A stretch of 64,000 nt of DNA from positions 704,001 to 768,000 of the forward strand of contig CBDHDG010000007.1 in assembly GCA_965261595.1 (NCBI GenBank), written 5' to 3'. The notes beneath the pieces were generated by a model that made no database searches, was not told where the DNA came from, and saw only the letters and a program-made list of their open reading frames with translations. Of this stretch, positions 6,374 to 35,087 are shown in pieces. The translations under genes and the position numbers were made by a program. This DNA is from a bacterium. GTDB taxonomy: Bacteria; UBA8248; JACPRG01; G963555815. Each line of letters begins with the position of its first letter. Position 1 is the first letter of the stretch.

Positions 6374-7360
6374 GTGGTCGACTTCGGACTGACCCTGCCG
6401 AACCGGGGCGTCATCGTCGGAATCGTGCAGGCCCGGGAGCTGGTGGACATGGCCGTGAAGGCGGAGGAGACGGGCGTCCTGACGGACGTCTGGGTCGGGG
6501 ACAGCATCCTGAGCAAGCCCCGGCTGGAGTGCATCCCCCTGCTGGGCGCGATCGCCGGGCGGACCGCCCGCGTCAAGCTGGGCGTGGCGTGCATGGCCAC
6601 CATCGTCCAGCGCAACCCCGTGGTCTTCGGCCTTCAGTGGGCGAGCCTGGACGTGCTCTCCGAGGGCCGGGCGCTCCTGGTGGCCTGCATGGGCTACCCG
6701 GCGAGCCAGACCCCGGCGGCCGCTAAGGAGCTGGACGTCATGGGGATCCCCAGCAAGGAGCGGCCGGGCCGGATGGTGGAGATGATGGCGGCCCTGCGGG
6801 CGCTCTGGTCCGGCGAGCACGCGACGTACGCGGGGAAATACTACGCCTTCGAGGACGTGAATCTCCTGCCGAAACCCGTCCAGCAGCCCTGCCCCATCTG
6901 GATCGCCGCCACCCCGCGCGAGCGGAACATCGGCGAGAAAGGCGTGGAGCGTTCCCTGCGGCGCATCGCCCAGCACGCCGACGGGTGGCAGACCACGCTG
7001 CTGACGCCCGAGATGTTCAAGGATTACCTGGGCCGCATCCAAGCGATGCGAAAAGAAGAGGGTCTGGACAAAGCCGGATTCAAGACCTCGCTCTACTACA
7101 ATCTGCACGTCAATCCCGACCGCGAGGCGGCTTATTGGGAGAGCAAGGCGTTTCTGGACGAATATTACGATCGGGACTGGCCGAAGGACATGGTGGAGCT
7201 CTGGACGGCCCACGGCTCCGTCCGGCAATGCGTCGAGACCCTGAAAGGTTATATGGATGCGGGCGTCGACCACATCACCATCCGACTGACGGCCCGGGAT
7301 CAGGCCCGGCAGTTCGAGATTTACGTGAAAGAGGTCCTGCCGGAGCTGGGGATTCGATAG
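6374..7360 (+). CDS. LLM-class flavin-dependent oxidoreductase
   Basis: VWVGDS, RT.RVKLG, ASLDVLSEGR, PKPVQQP..IWIA, HADGW. Confidence 0.92.
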   Translation: MVDFGLTLPNRGVIVGIVQARELVDMAVKAEETGVLTDVWVGDSILSKPRLECIPLLGAIAGRTARVKLGVACMATIVQRNPVVFGLQWASLDVLSEGRALLVACMGYPASQTPAAAKELDVMGIPSKERPGRMVEMMAALRALWSGEHATYAGKYYAFEDVNLLPKPVQQPCPIWIAATPRERNIGEKGVERSLRRIAQHADGWQTTLLTPEMFKDYLGRIQAMRKEEGLDKAGFKTSLYYNLHVNPDREAAYWESKAFLDEYYDRDWPKDMVELWTAHGSVRQCVETLKGYMDAGVDHITIRLTARDQARQFEIYVKEVLPELGIR

Positions 7361-7512
7361 TGTCGCGTCTCGGAGATAACTTCACGAATTCTGAACCTCC
7401 TCAAAGAAGCGTGCCACTGGCGGCTTGCTCGCCGGTGCCTCAGTTTTCGGGAAACCCAAAGGGCATCCTGTCATCTGAAACTTATTGAAACCATTTCTGA
7501 GACGCGACAGTA
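7358..7512. mobile_element. MITE with ~20-bp imperfect TIRs; the left end provides the TAG stop of the LLM gene
   Basis: TAGTGTCGCGTCTCGGAGAT ... ATTTCTGAGACGCGACAGTA; internal palindrome CACTGGCGGCTTGCTCGCCGGTG. Confidence 0.7.
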
Positions 7513-7665
7513 GAACCTATCTCAAAATGGGTAGTGCCCGAACCGTCATGCCCGCGTGTCGTAAGCGGGCATCCAGAAAAGCTTGAAAACACTGGTTTCC
7601 CGCTTTCGCGGGAATGACGACCAAAAGCCCAAGGAGTGGGAAATCTGTTTTTGAGATAGGTTCTA
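7511..7665. mobile_element. MITE with perfect 17-bp TIRs, enclosing a CGTC-type REP (7544-7619)
   Basis: TAGAACCTATCTCAAAA ... TTTTGAGATAGGTTCTA; internal CGTCATGCCCGC...GCGGGCATCCAG...CTGGTTTCCCGCTTTCGCGGGAATGACG. Confidence 0.75.
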
Positions 7666-7766
7666 GAGATCCGGGCGGACGTCGGGGGAGGAGAGCGCCC
7701 AGCAGAATCCGGACGCGCCTTATACTTTTTTCCTGAACGGAAAAGCGAGAGGAAAGGGGGAGGAAA

Positions 7767-8153
7767 ATAGCGACTTACAAATATGACCACATCCACTTTC
7801 GAAGCGAGGACCCGCACGCCGCCCGAAAATTCTGGGAGGAGATGTTCGGCGCGGAATGCACCCGGGAAAGAGAGCTGGGGGGCGCGCCGTCGTTCACGAT
7901 GGACCTGAACGGCATGATCTTTCAGGTGTCGGGCCGCGCGGAGGGCGAAGACCCCGTCCGCACGGGAAGCGAGCCGCGCTACGGCCTCGACCATTTCGGC
8001 CTTCTGGTGGACGACATGGACGGCGCGGCGAGCCACCTCCGCGGGAAAGGCGCGGAATTCATCTGCGAGCCCTGGGAGCTCCGCCCCGGCGTCAAGATCG
8101 CCTTCATCAAGGGGCCGGACAACATCAGCATCGAGCTGGCCGAACGAAAATAA
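7767..8153 (+). CDS. VOC/glyoxalase family protein; start codon is ATA, either mutated or non-canonical
   Basis: The frame upstream of the ORF-track start (7842) reads ATA-ATYKYDHIHFRSEDPHAARKFWEEMFG after GGAGG; downstream GLDHFGLLVDD and AFIKGPDNISIEL. Confidence 0.8.
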   Translation: MATYKYDHIHFRSEDPHAARKFWEEMFGAECTRERELGGAPSFTMDLNGMIFQVSGRAEGEDPVRTGSEPRYGLDHFGLLVDDMDGAASHLRGKGAEFICEPWELRPGVKIAFIKGPDNISIELAERK

Positions 8154-8189
8154 CCGCCCTCATCCCTTCATTCTCCGAAGGGCGAAAAG

Positions 8190-8312
8190 AACGGCTCTCA
8201 TTTGGGAATGACGGTTTTGTGGGAGCGGTTGAAGAGGCATTGGGGCGTATCCTGCAACGGCAGAAGCGCAGGACGAAAAGGGGGGATAAGCGGAAATAAG
8301 TATGGTGTCCCC
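8190..8312 (+). mobile_element. Y1 (RAYT/TIRYT-type) transposase 3' remnant plus right terminal repeat, copy 1
   Basis: Encodes FGNDGFVGAVEEALGRILQRQKRRTK, followed by AAATAAGTATGGTGTCCCC; homologous to 9240-9349 and 12030-12142. Confidence 0.7.
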
Positions 8313-8345
8313 TTAATTCCCTTAATTCCCTTAATTCCCTTAATT
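8310..8345. repeat. Tandem repeat (CCCTTAATT)x4
   Basis: Four exact 9-mers directly continuing the terminal repeat. Confidence 0.95.
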
Positions 8346-8374
8346 CACACGGGCCCGCCAACGGACCTTAGTGA

Positions 8375-8890
8375 CTATAGCGTCGGTTGGAACTTGTAGA
8401 TATATATCCATCCGGTCATGACAATCGCAATGACGGCGAAAAAGATATAGCAGGACCATAGCCCCGCAGGTCGAAAATCGTCCTCAATTCCGGTGACGTT
8501 CAGATCTTTCAAAGTTCGTTCTCTTCGTTTAGATAGTTTTTTGATTATAGTCAATTCTCAGAAAAGCACTACAGAATACGTAATTGAGAACACAACACCC
8601 ATCACAACCATAAGAATCCTGTACTTTGTAAATTCGCTATCTAGTGCGTACCTGAAAAGCAAACCGTTAATCCCCAAAAACACGCCAAACGCCTTTACAT
8701 GAATGTCGTAGTACTTGTGAAACTGATCAATGACCAACCGGTATTCCGTCAGCCAGAATTCCCTGGCGTCAGTGCTTTGGGTTTGGCTATGTTCCCGCTG
8801 AACTCGTTCAGTTCGCTTGGTAGATTCTGTTAAAGCCGCGCTACCGGCTCGTGTGGTCGTAGCCGGCACATTCCTAGATTTCATAGACAT
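8375..8890 (-). pseudogene. Low-GC membrane protein (about 3 TM) interrupted by an in-frame TGA at 8558-8560
   Basis: After ...YSVVLF* the same frame continues 60 codons (ELTIIKKLSKRRERTLKDL...WSCYIFFAVIAIVMTGWIYIYKFQPTL*). Confidence 0.7.
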
Positions 8891-9015
8891 AATTGAGAAT
8901 TTCCCATTTCAACTTCCGCCGATGTTCTTCCGGTCCCTTTTGCGGTTTGAAAACACTAGCCCCCCCCCAATGGTCATGTCAAGAGCTTCTCGAAGGCGCC
9001 AACTAAGTGGATTCT

Positions 9016-9349
9016 AGGGACAGCATACTTAATTCTTGACTTTTGGCTTGTGCCGCTATCGTGTCGGTGCATGCCAAGAATCGCACGGGTCGTGCCCCAG
9101 GCCTGCCCATCATGTCACAGCGGGCCAATCGAAGGTCAAGCCCTTGCTTGAAAGGGTCGGGAATTGGAGGGAGTTTCTTCCGGTTGGCGTATCCGAGGAG
9201 AAGATCGAGAGGATAGGCCGTAATGAGAGGACAGGCGGACCCTTGGGAAATGACGGTTTTGTCGGAAAGCTTGAAGACCCATTGGGTCGTATCCCGCAAC
9301 GGCGGATGCCGGGACGAAAATGGGGGGATAAGCGGAAATAAGGATGGTG
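9016..9349 (+). mobile_element. Internally deleted Y1 transposase element with inverted terminal repeats, copy 2; right repeat split by IS3
   Basis: Left repeat AGGGACAGCATACTTAATT (9016-9034). ATG at 9071 gives MPRIARVV.. then HHVT (frameshifted HUH-transposase N-terminus), joined to the C-terminus VKPLLERVGNWREFL...ERTGGPLGNDGF. Right repeat AAATAAGGATGGTG|TCCC. Confidence 0.75.
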
Positions 9350-9395
9350 TGGACCGCCCCTGGGTTATTGGACACTCGGGTGAGGGTATTCGACC

Positions 9396-10313
9396 TCATG
9401 CGGCCTCCGCAACTTGAGCGAGTTTTTCCTGCCTTGCCTGGGCCGGCGTTCGGTAGCCGTAGCCCTCGAGAATCCAATGATGGTTGTACAGGTTTTTGAA
9501 CTCAAGCAGCGCCCACCGCAGTTCCTCTACGGTGGCGAAAGAGCGCACCCACAGGAGATTCTCCTTCAAGATGCGGATGAACCACTCACAGTAGCCATTT
9601 CCCTCGGGCGCCCGCACGAAGCTGGGCGAACTGGTCATGCCCAGGTAGGCGATCTCCCGCTGAAAGTCATCGGACAGATAGGCGGGGCCGTGGTCGTGAC
9701 GAACTTTAAGCCCCTCGGCGACGTCCGCCTCCAAGCCGGCGAAGCGCTCGGCGACCCCCTGCCGGATCGGCTCCAGGGCCTCGAAGCGGTTGCCGCTCTT
9801 GGCCGCATGGATCCCCACGCAGTCCACCGAGCAGTGATCCACCGCCACGAACACCGAGGCCACCCCCTCCTCGGTGGTCACCGTCGTCGTCATGTCCGTG
9901 CCCCACATTCGGTCGGGCCGCTCGGTGCGGATGGTCCCGTTGTGGGCCTTGGGACCTCGGGGTTTGCCCACCCGGTGGGGGGCCTGAAGCCCCGCCTCCC
10001 GCATCAGGCGACGCACCCGCTCCTTGCTGGTGCGGATGCCCGCGAAGCGCAGCCTCGCCCACACCTTGCGGTAGCCCTCGCCATGGAAGGGAGAGTCCTC
10101 CAGGACCTGCCGGATGTGGCCGAGGAGTTCCGCATCGGTGCACGGGCCCACAGGGCCGCGCTTATGGGGCGTGGGGCGTTCATGAACGGGGACCGCCTCT
10201 CGCCGCCGTTGCGCGTAGACCGTGGAGCGCGCCAAGCCCCAAAGGGCGCACACCCGCTTCAGGCCGTAGGCTCTGCCCGTGGAGGTGAAGCGGGCCTGAC
10301 TCATCGCCTCCAC
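9396..10313 (-). CDS. IS3-family transposase OrfB (DDE/rve)
   Basis: GYRKVWARLR, WGTDMT, RHDHG..Y.S, PEGNG..E..IR.LKE. Confidence 0.92.
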   Translation of the reverse strand: MEAMSQARFTSTGRAYGLKRVCALWGLARSTVYAQRRREAVPVHERPTPHKRGPVGPCTDAELLGHIRQVLEDSPFHGEGYRKVWARLRFAGIRTSKERVRRLMREAGLQAPHRVGKPRGPKAHNGTIRTERPDRMWGTDMTTTVTTEEGVASVFVAVDHCSVDCVGIHAAKSGNRFEALEPIRQGVAERFAGLEADVAEGLKVRHDHGPAYLSDDFQREIAYLGMTSSPSFVRAPEGNGYCEWFIRILKENLLWVRSFATVEELRWALLEFKNLYNHHWILEGYGYRTPAQARQEKLAQVAEAA

Positions 10314-10715
10314 CTCCTGCCGGCTAAAGGGCGGCCGGCCTCCAGGCGGTCGATCTTCTCCCGCAGGACCTCGCCCTCCATCGTGAGTTCGCCCACCTTG
10401 GCCTTGAGCCGGGCGTTCTCCTCGTCCCGCTCATCCGCCGGGCGGGCTTTGAGCGCCGCCTCGCCCGCGCGAAGGAACGCCTCGCGCCAGGCGGAAAGCC
10501 GAGCCGCTGTCGTGCCCAACTCGCGGCAGAGCGTCTCCAGGCTCTCGCCCCGCAAAAGACGCAGGACCGCCTCCCGCTTGCGCCTGGCAGGAGAACCGAC
10601 CCCGCTCACTGCGATGCCCTGGGGCCTTGGCTCCGTTCGCCCTGCGGGCGCCCTCCGCCAAAGCCCCCTCTTGCTTTTGTTCGTTCATCGCGACACCCCT
10701 TTCTCCATGAATCAT
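10301..10715 (-). pseudogene. IS3-family OrfA (HTH), split by a +1 frameshift
   Basis: One extra G (TGCCAGGCGC vs TGCCAGCGC in copy 2) splits the 137-aa ORF seen at 33167-33580. Confidence 0.85.
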
Positions 10716-10768
10716 GGATCAATCGAGTGTCCAACAAAACCCTAGAGCGGGGGAAGTGTCCCTGCGAT

Positions 10769-11059
10769 TCAGCGCGTGGGGAGCTTCTCGATCTCTTCGC
10801 CGACCTCTTGGGCCGCAAGGCGAAGCTCATATGATTTTTGCAGGTTCAGCCAGAATTCCGCCGACATGCCGAACCAGTGGCCCAGCCGCAACGCCGTGTC
10901 GGCGGTGATGCCCCGCCTTCCGGCGACGATCTGGCTGATCCGGTTGGCCGGGACATGGATCTCCCGGCTGAGGGCCTCGGCGCTGAGGCCGAGTTCTTCA
11001 AGCTCGTCTTTGAGGACCTCGCCGGGGTGGATGGGCGCCCTGCTCATTTCATCCCTCAA
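10769..11059 (-). CDS. higA: HigA-family antitoxin
   Basis: PIHPGEVL, RISQIVAGRRGITADTALRL..WFG.SAEFWLNLQ..YEL. Confidence 0.95.
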   Translation of the reverse strand: MRDEMSRAPIHPGEVLKDELEELGLSAEALSREIHVPANRISQIVAGRRGITADTALRLGHWFGMSAEFWLNLQKSYELRLAAQEVGEEIEKLPTR

Positions 11060-11340
11060 TGGTAGTCGGTGATTTCAACGTTGATCGGCCCAGCCGCTCC
11101 CCTGGGCCATTCAAAGCAAATCCTCCACTGCTGGTTAATGCGGATGGTGCATTGCCCTTTCCGGTCGCCACGCAACTGCTCAAACCTGTTGCTCCGCAGG
11201 GCAATGAGGTCTTGGATGCTGGTGGCGGCGTCCAATATCTCCAGCCGTTTTTCAGCCTGCCTTTTGAAGCCTTCGAAGGCTTTCAGAGAGCCATCTTCGG
11301 CGAACCGTCTCGTTCGTTTGTCTCGGTAGCTCTGAATCAT
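11056..11340 (-). CDS. higB: HigB-family (RelE-like) toxin
   Basis: MIQSYRDK, NRFEQLRGDRKGQ..IRINQQWRICFEW, VEITDYH; toxin-first order with a 4-nt overlap. Confidence 0.95.
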   Translation of the reverse strand: MIQSYRDKRTRRFAEDGSLKAFEGFKRQAEKRLEILDAATSIQDLIALRSNRFEQLRGDRKGQCTIRINQQWRICFEWPRGAAGPINVEITDYH

Positions 11341-11345
11341 GAAAG

Positions 11346-11388
11346 AAGATAGAACATAAAACGTCGTACGTCAAGCGTCGTACGTACG
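11346..11388 (-). promoter_or_regulatory. Putative sigma70 promoter and operator of higBA (probably leaderless)
   Basis: Minus strand TTGACG-17 nt-TATCTT, 5 nt before the ATG; CGTCGTACGT occurs twice around the -35. Confidence 0.55.
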
Positions 11389-11531
11389 GAATATCTATAA
11401 AAACGCCTCAAAGCTCTGTACGGATAGAGGAGCCGCCCGTGGCACACGTTCAATCCCACGAGGCGGGGCCGCCTCTACATAACGGGCGTAGAGAGCCAGT
11501 TGTAGCGACTGCCCACTTCGTCAAGGGTGAA

Positions 11532-11864
11532 GCCGGATTTCTCACAAAGCCAAACACCCGAACGCGGCAGGTCGAGTGAACCGCTTATATCTCAATGATT
11601 TGCCCAACGAGCGTGTGTTGACCAAACCCCGACATTCTGTTCCCCGCGGGAGTGTGACGGGCAGGGACCCCCTGCTTTCGCAGAGGGCAGGCTTAGCCCC
11701 TCCCCTACGACGAAAAAACCCTGTACGGGTGTAGGGCGGGTCCCCGTCCCCGCCCGGAAACACGACCGTTGCCTGTATCCCGCGCTTTCAAGGAAACACA
11801 TCCGCCGATGGCCATCCCGGCGGTAAGGGAAACAGGAAACCATGAGCTTGGTGAGAAATGCAGG
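11532..11864. mobile_element. MITE with IS1380-like ends and a GTAG REP pair (copy B)
   Basis: GCCGGATTTCTCACAAAGC ... GCTTGGTGAGAAATGCAGG; internal CCCCTCCCCTAC / GTAGGGCGGG. Confidence 0.65.
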
Positions 11865-12151
11865 TTATCCATGTAACAGCGCGGCGGCGCATATCTCAGG
11901 CAAAGGCAACGATTGGGTGAAGGTCAAGCCCCTGCTTGAAAGGGTCGGGAATTGGAGAGACTTTCTTCCGGGTGGCGTATCCGAGGAAGAGATCGAGAGG
12001 ATAGGCCGTCATGAGAGGACAGGCAGACCCTTGGGAAATGACGGTTTTGTTGGAAAGCTTGAAGACCCATTGGGTCATGTCCCGCAACGGCGGAAGCTTG
12101 GACGAAAATGAAGGGATCAGCGGAAATAAGGTTGGCGTCCCCGCGATTCAG
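11865..12151 (+). mobile_element. Y1 transposase 3' remnant plus right terminal repeat, copy 3
   Basis: YPCNSAAAHISGK (compare YPWSSA of RAYT-type transposases)...VKVKPLLERVGNWRDFL...RHERTGRPLGNDGF, then AAATAAGGTTGGCGTCCCCGCGATTCAG. Confidence 0.75.
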
Positions 12152-12289
12152 TCGGAATGCTTTGGAGATGGAAATTCAAGACTCAAGATGTGACCCTGGC
12201 CGTCCCCGCAAAGTTCGCCGGAAATCTGGGAAATGTTAGAATGTAAGACCTGACCCTGTGCCTTTCCATTTTAGCGCCCCCCATCAATC

Positions 12290-12697
12290 ATGACGAAAGG
12301 AGAAGATATGCCTAGGGAAATTCTTCAGCCGAAAGGGCTCCTCGATCCTCGCCCCCGCTACTCTCAGGTCTCCCGATTCGGAAAGAAGGAGGTGTTCCTG
12401 GCGGGGCAGTTGGCCAGGGACGCCCGGGGGAACCTCGTTGGGACGGGAGATATCCGGGCTCAGACCCGTCAGGTCTTCGAGAACATCAAGAAGTGCCTTG
12501 AAGCGGTCGGGGCCGGCTTCGAGAACGTGGGGAAGATCAACGTTTACCTGACGGACATCGATAATCAGTTGGCCGCCGTTGGGGAGGTCAGACAGGAGTT
12601 TTTCTCGGAGCCCGTCCCCAGCACCACAGTCGGGGTGGCTCGCCTGGCGGAGCCTGACGCCCTGGTGGAGATCGAGGTGAATGTGATCTTCGAGTGA
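12290..12697 (+). CDS. RidA/YjgF family protein
   Basis: YSQV, VFLAGQ, QTRQVFENI, VGKINVYLTD, P.ST.VGVARLA.PDALVEIE. Confidence 0.93.
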   Translation: MTKGEDMPREILQPKGLLDPRPRYSQVSRFGKKEVFLAGQLARDARGNLVGTGDIRAQTRQVFENIKKCLEAVGAGFENVGKINVYLTDIDNQLAAVGEVRQEFFSEPVPSTTVGVARLAEPDALVEIEVNVIFE

Positions 12698-12958: not shown

Positions 12959-13017
12959 CTGAATCGTCGCCGGCTTTTTCACGGGTGGGGAACCCCTGAA
13001 AAGAAACGCCGACGCGA

Positions 13018-33126: not shown

Positions 33127-33166
33127 TTCCCCCGCTCTAGGGTTTTGTTGGACACTCGATTGATCC

Positions 33167-33580
33167 ATGATTCATGGAGAAAGGGGTGTCGCGATGAACG
33201 AACAAAAGCAAGAGGGGGCTTTGGCGGAGGGCGCCCGCAGGGCGAACGGAGCCAAGGCCCCAGGGCATCGCAGTGAGCGGGGTCGGTTCTCCTGCCAGCG
33301 CAAGCGGGAGGCGGTCCTGCGTCTTTTGCGGGGCGAGAGCCTGGAGACGCTCTGCCGCGAGTTGGGCACGACAGCGGCTCGGCTTTCCGCCTGGCGCGAG
33401 GCGTTCCTTCGCGGGGGCGAGGCGGCGCTCAAAGCTCGCCCGGCGGATGAGCGGGCCGAGGAGAACGCCCGGCTCAAGGCCAAGGTGGGCGAACTCACGA
33501 TGGAGGGCGAGGTCCTGCGGGAGAAGATCGACCGCCTGGAGGCCGGCCGCCCTTTAGCCGGCAGGAGGTGGAGGCGATGA
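33167..33580 (+). CDS. IS3-family OrfA (HTH)
   Basis: RFS..RKREAVLRLLRGE.LE.L.RELG, LKAKVGELTME. Confidence 0.88.
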   Translation: MIHGERGVAMNEQKQEGALAEGARRANGAKAPGHRSERGRFSCQRKREAVLRLLRGESLETLCRELGTTAARLSAWREAFLRGGEAALKARPADERAEENARLKAKVGELTMEGEVLREKIDRLEAGRPLAGRRWRR

Positions 33581-34485
33581 GTCAGGCCCGCTTCACCTCC
33601 ACGGGCAGAGCCTACGGCCTGAAGCGGGTGTGCGCCCTTTGGGGCTTGGCGCGCTCCACGGTCTACGCGCAACGGCGGCGAGAGGCGGTCCCCGTTCATG
33701 AACGCCCCACGCCCAATAAGCGCGGCCCTGTGGGCCCGTGCACCGATGCGGAACTCCTCGGTCACATCCGGCAGGTCCTGGAGGACTCTCCCTTCCATGG
33801 CGAGGGCTACCGCAAGGTGTGGGCGAGGCTGCGCTTCGCGGGCATCCGCACCAGCAAGGAGCGGGTGCGTCGCCTGATGCGGGAGGCGGGGCTTCAGGCC
33901 CCCCACCGGGTGGGCAAACCCCGAGGTCCCAAGGCCCACAACGGGACCATCCGCACCGAGCGGCCCGACCGAATGTGGGGCACGGACATGACGACGACGG
34001 TGACCACCGAGGAGTGGATGGCCTCGGTGTTCGTGGCGGTGGATCACTGTTCGGTGGACTGCGTGGGGATCCATGCGGCCAAGAGCGGCAACCGCTTCGA
34101 GGCCATGGAGCCGATCCGGCAGGGGGTCGCCGAGCGCTTCGCCGGCTTGGAGGCGGACGTCGCCGAGGGGCTTAAAGTTCGTCACGACCACGGCCCCGCC
34201 TATCTGTCCGATGACTTTCAGCGGGAGATCGCCTACCTGGGCATGACCAGTTCGCCCAGCTTCGTGCGGGCGCCCGAGGGAAATGGCTACTGTGAGTGGT
34301 TCATCCGCATCTTGAAGGAGAATCTCCTGTGGGTGCGCTCTTTCGCCACCGTAGAGGAACTGCGGTGGGCGTTGCTTGAGTTCAAGAACCTGTATAACCA
34401 TCATTGGATTCTCGAGGGCTACGGCTACCGAACGCCGGCCCAGGCAAGGCAGGAAAAACTCGCTCAAGTTGCGGAGGCCGCATGA
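33568..34485 (+). CDS. IS3-family transposase OrfB
   Basis: Near-identical to 9396-10313. Confidence 0.92.
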   Translation: MEAMSQARFTSTGRAYGLKRVCALWGLARSTVYAQRRREAVPVHERPTPNKRGPVGPCTDAELLGHIRQVLEDSPFHGEGYRKVWARLRFAGIRTSKERVRRLMREAGLQAPHRVGKPRGPKAHNGTIRTERPDRMWGTDMTTTVTTEEWMASVFVAVDHCSVDCVGIHAAKSGNRFEAMEPIRQGVAERFAGLEADVAEGLKVRHDHGPAYLSDDFQREIAYLGMTSSPSFVRAPEGNGYCEWFIRILKENLLWVRSFATVEELRWALLEFKNLYNHHWILEGYGYRTPAQARQEKLAQVAEAA

Positions 34486-34662
34486 GGTCGAATACCCTCA
34501 CCCGAGTGTCCAATAACCCAGGGGCGGTCCACTCCCTGTCCCAATCCAATGAATTTTTCATGCCGGCAGGTGCAATCCATATAACGAAATTAATACGAAA
34601 TAAATCTCTCGGCAACCATTTTTTTGATCTGAGTGAAGGGGCGGGACCTCATGATCGGATTT

Positions 34663-34715
34663 AATCGGGGGACACCAGACCTAATCCTGAAATTAAGTAT
34701 GGTGTCCCCGTAATT
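34663..34715. mobile_element. Minimal element consisting only of two inverted GGGGACAC-type terminal repeats
   Basis: GGGGACACCAGACCTAAT-CCTGA-AATTAAGTATGGTGTCCCCGTAATT. Confidence 0.75.
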
Positions 34716-35087
34716 CGCCCCCGGCGCCAGCCAACGGAAGCAGTGTTCCCATACCTTATCCAATTCCGCAAGAAATTCTTCGTAGTCTGCAATCGCACCC
34801 AACTGGCCCTCGGAATGATGATAATCCTTCAGTGTCCAATAGGGGGGGGAAGTCAGAATCAGGTGGACGCTACGAGGTTCAAGCATGAACAATTCGCGGG
34901 CGTCGTGAAGGTGCAGGTCGTGGCGGGTGGGAATTCCACGAAGGGTGGCCTCGATAAGCGCCATGAGCCTGCAGTCTTTAGCAATCCGGGGCAACGCTGT
35001 CTGCAGGGACTCAATCTCGCGCAATTCATCCGGGAGGAACTGGGCAACGTCTTCTTTTGCCGAAGAATCGGCCATCAGCCTGCCCAT
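34716..35087 (-). pseudogene. N-terminal fragment of an N4/N6 DNA methyltransferase
   Basis: SVHLILTSPPYW.LK.Y...LDKVW..CFR.L.PG, then the frame runs into the repeat at 34715. Confidence 0.85.

Follow-up and report, generated by a model that had tools for sequence, protein, structure and literature searches.

Elements of the IS200/IS605 group, such as IS608, are moved by Y1 transposases of the HUH type, and classical members have subterminal hairpins and lack terminal inverted repeats (TIRs). In integron arrays, genes stand in one orientation, each with a copy of a recombination-type site at its 3' end. The locus analyzed here lies in a window of 64,000 nt (contig CBDHDG010000007.1 of assembly GCA_965261595.1, positions 704,001-768,000 of the forward strand), in which three ends of a Y1 transposase gene alternate, between positions 8190 and 12260, with a broken membrane-type gene and a higBA toxin-antitoxin (TA) pair. 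A preliminary description had taken it for an integron-like array, built by iterative capture of such genes at the transposase ends. RAYT-like genes flanked by TIRs with the motif GGGGWSAS have been named TIRYT and the corresponding units TIRtrons, and families of such TIRs as singles, dimers, and clusters were noted in the accessible portion of the same article (Di Nocera et al. 2013, PMC3733652). TIRYT has been equated with subclass 2.1 of TnpA_REP, a group for which the accessible text gives a C-terminal domain of the helix-turn-helix (HTH) type, namely, Bac_DnaA_C, HTH_23, or HTH_28 (Quentin et al. 2018, PMC6006769).

The segment 8202-12262 is probably an accumulation of decayed, trans-dependent TIRtron remnants in an accessory island, together with insertion sequences (ISs) and three other small repeat families; as part of this same probable reading, a higBA pair gained by horizontal transfer and a broken orphan gene lie in the island as well. 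In the following, coordinates without a contig prefix are window positions, C2 and C4-C7 are contigs of the window's own 6.17-Mb genome (G000), L-numbers are extracted loci, G001 is a congener, and G006 belongs to another genus.

The only intact copy of the element is found on another contig (G000:C6:336154-336909). It is about 750 bp long, carries GGGGACACCATACTTA in inverted orientation at both ends and a TTGACT box in its left end, and contains an open reading frame (ORF) of 222 aa (L041:2681-3346, minus strand). Its TIR starts with GGGGACAC, which fits GGGGWSAS. The ORF matches Y1_Tnp (PF01797) at 46.8-48.3 bits (cut-off 23) and the TnpA_REP structure 4ER8 with an E value of 6.8e-6, and it scores 69.6 bits with the NCBIfam model REP_Tyr_transpos, under the 80-bit equivalog cut-off of that model. 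In the translation, NHVHLIV and RYVELNPV align with HMHCI and DYIYINPV of TnpA_REP, that is, with the HUH motif and the tyrosine region, which we take to have catalytic roles here as well. At least 8000 homologues were obtained at E <= 1e-10, many of them 65-70% identical, from different phyla and annotated as "transposase" or "REP-associated tyrosine transposase." The Y1 domain is followed by a tail of about 85 aa; at E <= 1e-5, Pfam listed Y1_Tnp alone and no HTH family. Judged by these comparisons, the assignment to the RAYT-like Y1 (HUH) transposases with TIRs, i.e., TIRYT/TIRtron, is correct, and the repeats of the array are ends of such an element, as had been proposed.

A search of the whole genome with PF01797 gave five places, the best in an open frame of 225 aa at C6:336483-336806 and none within 8190-12260, where only pseudogene fragments are present. 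The profile search suggested as a check on the initial description therefore gave a divided answer: the full-length gene on the other contig matches, but the fragments of the array have no Pfam match, because they lie C-terminal to the Y1 domain. The assignment of these fragments to Y1 is based on their DNA, which is about 85% identical to that of the intact gene.

A repeat search and alignment to the full-length element (the query being the extracted intact element including 41 bp of flank) bore out the three 3' ends of a Y1 transposase gene in the same orientation. The arms aligned at 8202-8321, at 9017-9135 plus 9135-9350, and at 11865-12142, all on the plus strand. Copy 1 is a solo right arm at 8202-8321 (query positions 676-796; TIR core 8297-8312), followed at 8313-8348 on the plus strand by four tandem 9-mers, TTAATTCCC three times plus TTAATTCAC, which form a "stutter" of the terminal heptamer. 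Copy 2 (9009-9349, plus strand) is an internal-deletion derivative of the kind known as miniature inverted-repeat transposable elements (MITEs), and it keeps both ends. As read from the sequence, its left part consists of the heptamer at 9009-9015, the left TIR core at 9016-9031, and TTGACT at 9036-9041; a frameshifted N-terminus follows from 9071, with the deletion junction near 9131-9135 and the right arm extending to 9349. Of the features ascribed to this copy, the left inverted repeat, the TTGACT box, and the ATG at 9071 encoding MPRIARVV are present, but HHVT lies in another frame; the coding remnant is frameshifted and internally deleted, and the alignment also shows an insertion. Copy 3 is a 5'-truncated right arm at 11865-12151 on the plus strand (query positions 510-787; TIR core 12127-12142; heptamer GCGATTC+AG at 12143-12151), and its 5' truncation coincides with the exact end, at 11867, of an unrelated MITE designated MITE-C. 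The terminal pattern said to follow each copy was matched at 8291-8311 and 12121-12141 (0 of 100 shuffles), twice rather than three times, because an IS3-family element splits the terminal repeat of copy 2.

The three arms measure 120, 220, and 278 nt, and each is truncated at a different point. As direct repeats, 9131-9350 and 11919-12138 are 91% identical over 220 nt, whereas 8201-8319 reaches just 74-75% over 119 nt with the other two arms. Copies 2 and 3 are each 91-92% like C6:527968-528147, and hence no closer to one another than to this distant copy. A segment that includes part of copy 3 (11974-12187) is duplicated on contig C4 at 98.6% identity; the duplicate continues 45 bp past the TIR, and it is therefore a segmental copy, not a product of transposition. 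The DNA between the arms is not repeated.

The IS3-family element responsible for the split is 1405 bp long (9350-10754, minus strand; orfA 10301-10609, orfB 9396-10313) and interrupts the right TIR of copy 2, with GGTG and AGTG at its flanks; the last 18 nt of this TIR (AGTG TCCCT GCGATTC AG) follow at 10755-10772 on the plus strand. Its inverted arms are at 9365-9383 and 10719-10737. Pfam identified HTH_Tnp_1 in orfA and rve/HTH_21 in orfB, and the NCBIfam model transpos_IS3 scored 158.2 bits against a cut-off of 160, so that the element combines an HTH domain in orfA, rve in orfB, terminal inverted repeats, and a short target duplication, as expected for an IS3-family member. In a contig of run X19, position 9346 is joined to 10756, with 4 letters common to both sides; this is an IS-free allele, in which the terminal repeat is continuous beside higA. 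Across the genome, this element was counted at 177 full copies and about 194 pieces, with roughly 99.4% identity, amounting to 4.3% of the 6.17-Mb genome; a 4-bp target duplication was seen at 109 of the 177 full copies, with varied flanks. These numbers reflect a recent, massive IS expansion. Two further copies in the window are located at about 33127-34535 and near the repeats from 14500 onward.

A wider survey placed these remnants in a family. The sequence of copy 2 finds 25 places in the genome, and a catalogue based on BLAST and motif searches comprises 41 loci in 29 independent TIR regions: a single intact copy, MITE-like deletion derivatives of 335-425 bp that number about seven (copy 2 and six others), solo arms, and about twelve TIR-loop-TIR palindromes (dimers) of 41-50 bp. 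Among the MITE-like derivatives there are subfamilies with common deletion junctions, one defined by 327/660 (two loci) and one by 187/442 (three loci), as numbered on the full-length query. Derivatives that share a junction occur at different loci and have therefore multiplied in trans. One of the palindromes, of 50 bp, lies in the window at 34668-34717 and folds as a hairpin (-14.4 kcal/mol, z -3.8); it is 133 bp from an IS3 copy and adjoins a partial N6_N4 DNA-methylase ORF (34593-35087, minus strand). When the termini were aligned, the repeat was seen to reach outward to GGRATYNN. No target duplication was seen at four elements inspected by eye, and no common sequence was seen outside the termini among four copies of one mini subfamily.

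The 41 loci are unevenly distributed. With 2000 random placements of the loci as a reference, 20 of them have another within 10 kb, in eight clusters (simulated mean 5.1, maximum 17), and 11 are within 500 bp of an IS3-family copy (simulated mean 3.1, maximum 10). Two other MITE families repeatedly abut TIRtron pieces. The simplest reading is that the family copies, the IS3 element, and the other MITEs persist in the same dispensable DNA. Targeting of TIRs by the IS3 element was considered and discarded: among the 177 full copies, with flanks that varied by eye, just 2-3 are within about 25 bp of a TIR. Shared tolerance is the simplest reading of the IS3 excess near TIR loci, and a weak preference of the IS for TIRs is conceivable. 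The orientation of the loci follows the sign of the 200-kb GC skew in 16 of 21 cases, or in 11 of 15 when only independent loci are counted (binomial about 0.06); this could indicate a strand bias like that of IS200/IS605, which we do not claim.

The TIR 16-mer, with at most one mismatch, occurs 38 times in G000, 8-9 times each in G001, G003, and G006, and once each in G002 and G014; it was found in none of the other 25 relatives searched, and the reversed control was found nowhere. The 16-mer was thus found in 6 of 31 related genomes, 5 of which belong to one taxonomic family.

The array includes two cargo units. The first, a low-GC membrane-type gene on the minus strand at 8375-8890 (GC 0.41-0.46), was present where the preliminary description had placed it, after the first repeat, but it is interrupted by an in-frame TGA at 8558-8560. 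No Pfam match above the cut-off and none in NCBIfam or PADLOC was obtained for it, and no relative was found in a search of genome contigs; its single distant relative among 5.8 billion proteins is P0123 (163 aa), which covers the two halves and reads Cys at the TGA position. The second unit is higBA, with the higA antitoxin gene at 10769-11059 (TIGR02607, 100.4 bits; HTH_3) and the higB toxin gene at 11056-11340 (PF05015, 56.2 bits), both on the minus strand. The toxin gene comes first and overlaps higA by 4 nt; a HigB-like toxin upstream of an HTH HigA is a type II arrangement. The stop codon of higA is indeed supplied by the repeat tail, as had been noticed, since its TGA is the complement of 10769-10771 within the terminal heptamer GCGATTC+AG. 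The upstream region 11346-11384 contains a promoter-like TTGACG-17-TATCTT (9 of 12 positions, by consensus scan only) and a palindrome. The best relatives of this HigB are 72% identical and are distributed over Burkholderiales and many other phyla; among 80 kept loci encoding higB relatives, one match to the TIR-like 16-mer was found, with 3 mismatches, which is the chance level. Both 8346-8893 and 10760-11505 are single-copy in the genome. The label of toxin or defence cargo consequently fits higBA but not the low-GC gene, for which no family was matched. Both units are likely to be accessory DNA acquired independently and now lying between the remnants, not cassettes recruited by the transposase.

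Comparison with relatives and strains shows where the site has changed. In G001, the order of an LLM gene, a glyoxalase gene, and copy 1 is conserved, with window positions 7720-8321 corresponding to L031 1817-2417 at 89%; the 2.2 kb beyond copy 1 contain other ORFs and an IS1380-type remnant and have no further right arm. In G006, the glyoxalase gene is followed by a permease gene, without the repeat. Since the three genomes all differ here, the site has been rearranged in all of them, with one breakpoint at a right-end terminus. Elsewhere, by comparison, one cluster of the family (cluster E) is kept element for element in G001. Assembled contigs of runs X15, X18, and X19, in which rare forms are invisible, cover the array at >= 99% identity and differ in the IS and an 18-bp stutter only, the stutter of copy 1 being two units (18 bp) shorter in runs X18 and X19; contigs of run X1 cover parts of the stretch only. 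Joints from 8312 to 9350 and from 10754 to 11765, with short sides of 20-26 nt, come from other genomic copies of the repeats and were not counted.

A coherent history can be proposed for these remnants. The TIRtron is an element of roughly 750 bp, with a RAYT-like Y1/HUH gene between TIRs of about 25 bp with the structure GGRATYNN-GGGGACACCATACTTA. The enzyme of a single master copy, that on C6, acts in trans on derivatives, which are as small as the 41-50-bp TIR-loop-TIR hairpins. Insertion would duplicate no target sequence and would follow a single-strand HUH mechanism, as in IS200/IS605 and REP/RAYT; the copies that last would be mostly those in dispensable spacers next to the 3' ends of genes, within accessory islands. 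Later insertions and deletions would have truncated them, as suggested here by the end of MITE-C at 11867 and by the IS3 insertion at 9350.

Several observations weigh against this account. Homology between G000 and G001 ends about 10 bp beyond the terminus of copy 1 and resumes at 13005, a position that chance placement of breakpoints does not predict. Orientation is uniform in every oriented cluster (2 of 2, 2 of 2, 4 of 4, 2 of 2, and 3 of 3). Tandem copies of the outer 8-mer are present at 13 of 51 termini (control positions: mean 1.6, maximum 4), each repeated unit of 9-23 nt comprising the terminal heptamer and the initial G's of the TIR (e.g., 8313-8348, C6:211786-211815, and C6:529352-529381); such stuttered termini point to an activity at the ends for which a mere accumulation of debris offers no explanation. 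Three of the 13 toxin matches of the genome, namely, the higBA of the window and two ParE modules in another cluster of the family (cluster G), are within 40 bp of a TIR element, while about 0.03 would be expected at random whole-genome placement, a back-of-envelope estimate that was not simulated. The breakpoint at copy 1, the uniform orientation, the stutter, and the co-localisation with TA genes are all left unexplained by decay within an island. Finally, a clean pair of filled and empty sites was not recovered in comparisons of G001 L061 with C4:820620-820820, of the flanks of the master copy and of the window mini-palindrome, or of the TA-1 remnant at G001:C49, and the insertion chemistry proposed above is therefore one that we infer.

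The capture of genes by the element, as initially envisaged, draws on the same observations and is nevertheless unlikely. In this model the right ends would be live sites, at which a trans-acting TIRYT joins right end to right end, or to a circle, and so adds or removes units made of one or more genes plus a right arm. Put more fully, the right ends would be attC-like sites for the HUH nuclease, arrays would favour addiction modules in strain-specific islands, and the stutter would represent scars of cleavage and rejoining. The congener breakpoint at the terminus of copy 1 suits such a model, but the variable DNA of G001 is not followed by another right arm. The 3' ends of both cargo units, on the same strand, lie 7-60 bp from a right-end terminus, and arms are uniformly oriented within the cluster; however, the units are uneven, since copy 2 keeps its left end and copy 3 is cut by MITE-C, and the arms are unequal in age as well as in truncation. 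A second strain-specific island, that of cluster G, is a segment of 4.85 kb (L039 1994-6845; G000:C7:291356-296207) that is absent from G001 with a clean junction. It contains two ParE-type TA modules and orphan ORFs, with TIR mini-palindromes between them, a 217-bp internal direct repeat that encodes small ORFs resembling antitoxins, and two mini-palindromes of 68 bp with 91% identity, but its borders show no TIR. Co-localisation of three of the 13 toxins with TIRs stands against TA genes at only 2 of the 29 TIR regions and against a cargo that was nowhere else found with a TIR. The stutter varies among strains by 18 bp, yet three runs show the same array apart from this repeat and the IS, in contigs that are blind to rare forms.

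More generally, several properties of integron cassettes were not encountered. Exchangeable cassettes are not apparent, given the single-copy cargo, the 80 loci of higB relatives, and the orphan gene without relatives in the genome contigs searched; the cargo does not look promoterless, higBA having its own promoter-like site and the other gene being interrupted; and no recombinase gene adjoins the array, none of the five PF01797 places falling within 8190-12260 and the intact copy being on another contig. As to variation on a conserved platform, G001 has copy 1 followed by unrelated DNA without a further arm, and near-identical strains show the same array. The points in favour of capture leave it some probability but are equally expected if TIR and TA DNA both collect in accessory islands. 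Iterative, integron-like capture is unsupported by these comparisons, and remnants amassed in such an island are the more probable reading.

The neighbourhood of the family as a whole bears on this choice. Families were sought with Pfam on 350 of the 369 ORFs of at least 55 aa that lie no more than 600 bp from one of the 41 loci; those omitted are the 19 ORFs around 8190-12260, and ten ORFs of that stretch were scanned separately with Pfam. Toxins and antitoxins were counted by six-frame family searches over the whole genome, which gave 13 toxin matches (6 HigB-like, 2 ParE plus one weaker by Pfam, 3 PIN, and 1 PemK), one match to the antitoxin family Unstab_antitox, and none to PhdYeFM. TA families were found at 2 of the 29 independent TIR regions in the exhaustive neighbour scan. 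For the enrichment for TA and defence functions that the preliminary description had asked about, the outcome is mixed: TA genes are over-represented beside TIR elements relative to the whole genome, yet few of all neighbours belong to this class. Each of the two places with TA genes is a strain-specific island, in which DNA of either kind is to be expected. With PADLOC, neighbours gave domain-level matches only. The commonest identified neighbours are other transposases, with IS3-type, Mutator, IS1595, and IS1380 transposases near several of the 41 loci, and FGE-sulfatase/caspase genes. At five loci, the 3' end of an FGE-sulfatase, caspase (Peptidase_C14), or SH3 gene is about 4-120 bp from a TIR element: L032 (C2:128772-129194), L038 (C6:1665396-1666327), L041 (C6:336900-338639), L160 (C6:1229224-1229640), and L155 (C5:406544-407187). 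These genes form a multi-copy family, and either co-duplication or target preference may account for their position. EamA genes are present at two loci.

Target preference is also the basis of another alternative, in which the element inserts beside existing copies or near 3' ends and operators that form hairpins, for instance in TA operons. Clusters and the adjacency to TA genes would then mark the sites at which the transposase integrates and not those at which debris persists; this, too, appears improbable. Two minis lie 33 bp apart at C7:582965-583088, a solo TIR and a mini are found together at C7:558240-558315, and elements stand 4-120 bp from FGE-sulfatase/SH3 stop codons at the five loci just listed. 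Y1 transposases act on single-stranded hairpins, and the mini-palindromes fold as such, with the energy and z value given above. However, the four mini-subfamily copies have no common sequence outside their termini, and no empty site was recovered with which a target could be defined. Co-localisation is equal with an IS of no evident specificity, for which shared tolerance is the simpler explanation. A common origin of the three arms from one ancestral insertion, duplicated locally in tandem or as a segment, is highly improbable: the same orientation, the 9 nt GCGATTCAG shared by copies 2 and 3 beyond the TIR core, and the segmental duplicate of copy 3 on C4 would agree with it, but copies 2 and 3 resemble one another no more than either resembles the C6 copy, copy 1 is just 74-75% like the others, the truncation points differ, and nothing between the arms is repeated.

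The remaining features of the region complete the picture of a mixed island. The array is bounded by a glyoxalase-type gene (7842-8153, plus strand) and a RidA-type gene (12290-12697, plus strand). Between the orphan gene and copy 2 lies a piece of an unrelated repeat family of ~108 bp with about 12 copies (8894-9004, plus strand), cut off beside copy 2. MITE-C (11506-11867, plus strand; arms 11530-11550 and 11846-11866) belongs to a family of about 15 copies with 70-85% identity, and the solo end of a third MITE family, GGGTCAGGTCTTACATTCTAACAT, with about 25 copies, is located at 12209-12262 on the minus strand. Upstream, 7360-7719 contains a small MITE-like insert with perfect 17-bp inverted arms (7511-7527 and 7649-7665) that holds a GGGAATGAC..hairpin motif; G001 has 61 bp there versus 360 bp in G000. 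At gathering thresholds, Rfam found nothing in the stretch, its sole match being a tRNA gene at 2308-2379 on the minus strand, about 6 kb upstream of the array. At other loci of the family, the EamA-family transporter genes at C2:125864 and C6:528367 (L032:3422-4369 and L037:6134-7087) start just outside the left ends of MITE-like derivatives that belong to different deletion subfamilies. At L040 3400-4076 (G000:C4:868400-869076), a small RelA_SpoT-domain gene is split between two frames and adjoins both the duplicate of right arm 3 and an IS1380-type transposase.

Taken by itself, the locus is ordinary: debris of mobile elements that lies in an accessory island, in a genome full of ISs. The family to which it belongs is of wider use, as it offers a compact natural series for the poorly studied TIRYT, comprising a master gene, junction-sharing MITEs, hairpin-sized derivatives, and strain-variable stutters, and this series could guide the biochemical definition of the cleavage site. 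Were the capture model true, cassette arrays could form by a second route, one that is HUH-driven. A literature search that covered listings and the passages cited here gave no description in which TIRYT, TIRtron, or RAYT elements capture genes.

Compared with integron arrays, the genes here likewise share one orientation, have the repeat at their 3' end, and differ in content among relatives beside the first site. In contrast to such arrays, there is no adjacent recombinase, the sites are unequal in length and age, one cargo has a promoter-like site and the other is broken, and no shared or exchangeable cassettes were found. With IS200/IS605 the family has in common the Y1 HUH transposase, the lack of target duplication at the four elements inspected, and a possible strand bias (16/21), but it differs in possessing TIRs. 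In the REP/RAYT system with its REPINs (Bertels et al. 2017, PMC5581495), as here, one transposase gene per genome acts in trans on short noncoding derivatives. The 41-50-bp TIR-loop-TIR hairpins also resemble REP doublets, and in both cases copies tend to occupy extragenic spacers close to gene ends; in contrast, the family analyzed here has long inverted-repeat ends instead of a GTAG-tagged palindrome, counts about 40 loci only, and includes larger MITE-like derivatives that retain parts of the gene. From the TIRtrons described so far, it differs in being lineage-specific and in having one master copy, junction-sharing MITEs, and stuttered termini, features without mention in the accessible portions of PMC3733652 and PMC6006769. 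With them it shares, as far as the same portions extend, a RAYT-like Y1 gene between TIRs, the GGGGWSAS motif (here GGGGACAC), a C-terminal extension, and TIRs that form a moderately abundant family of singles, dimers, and clusters.

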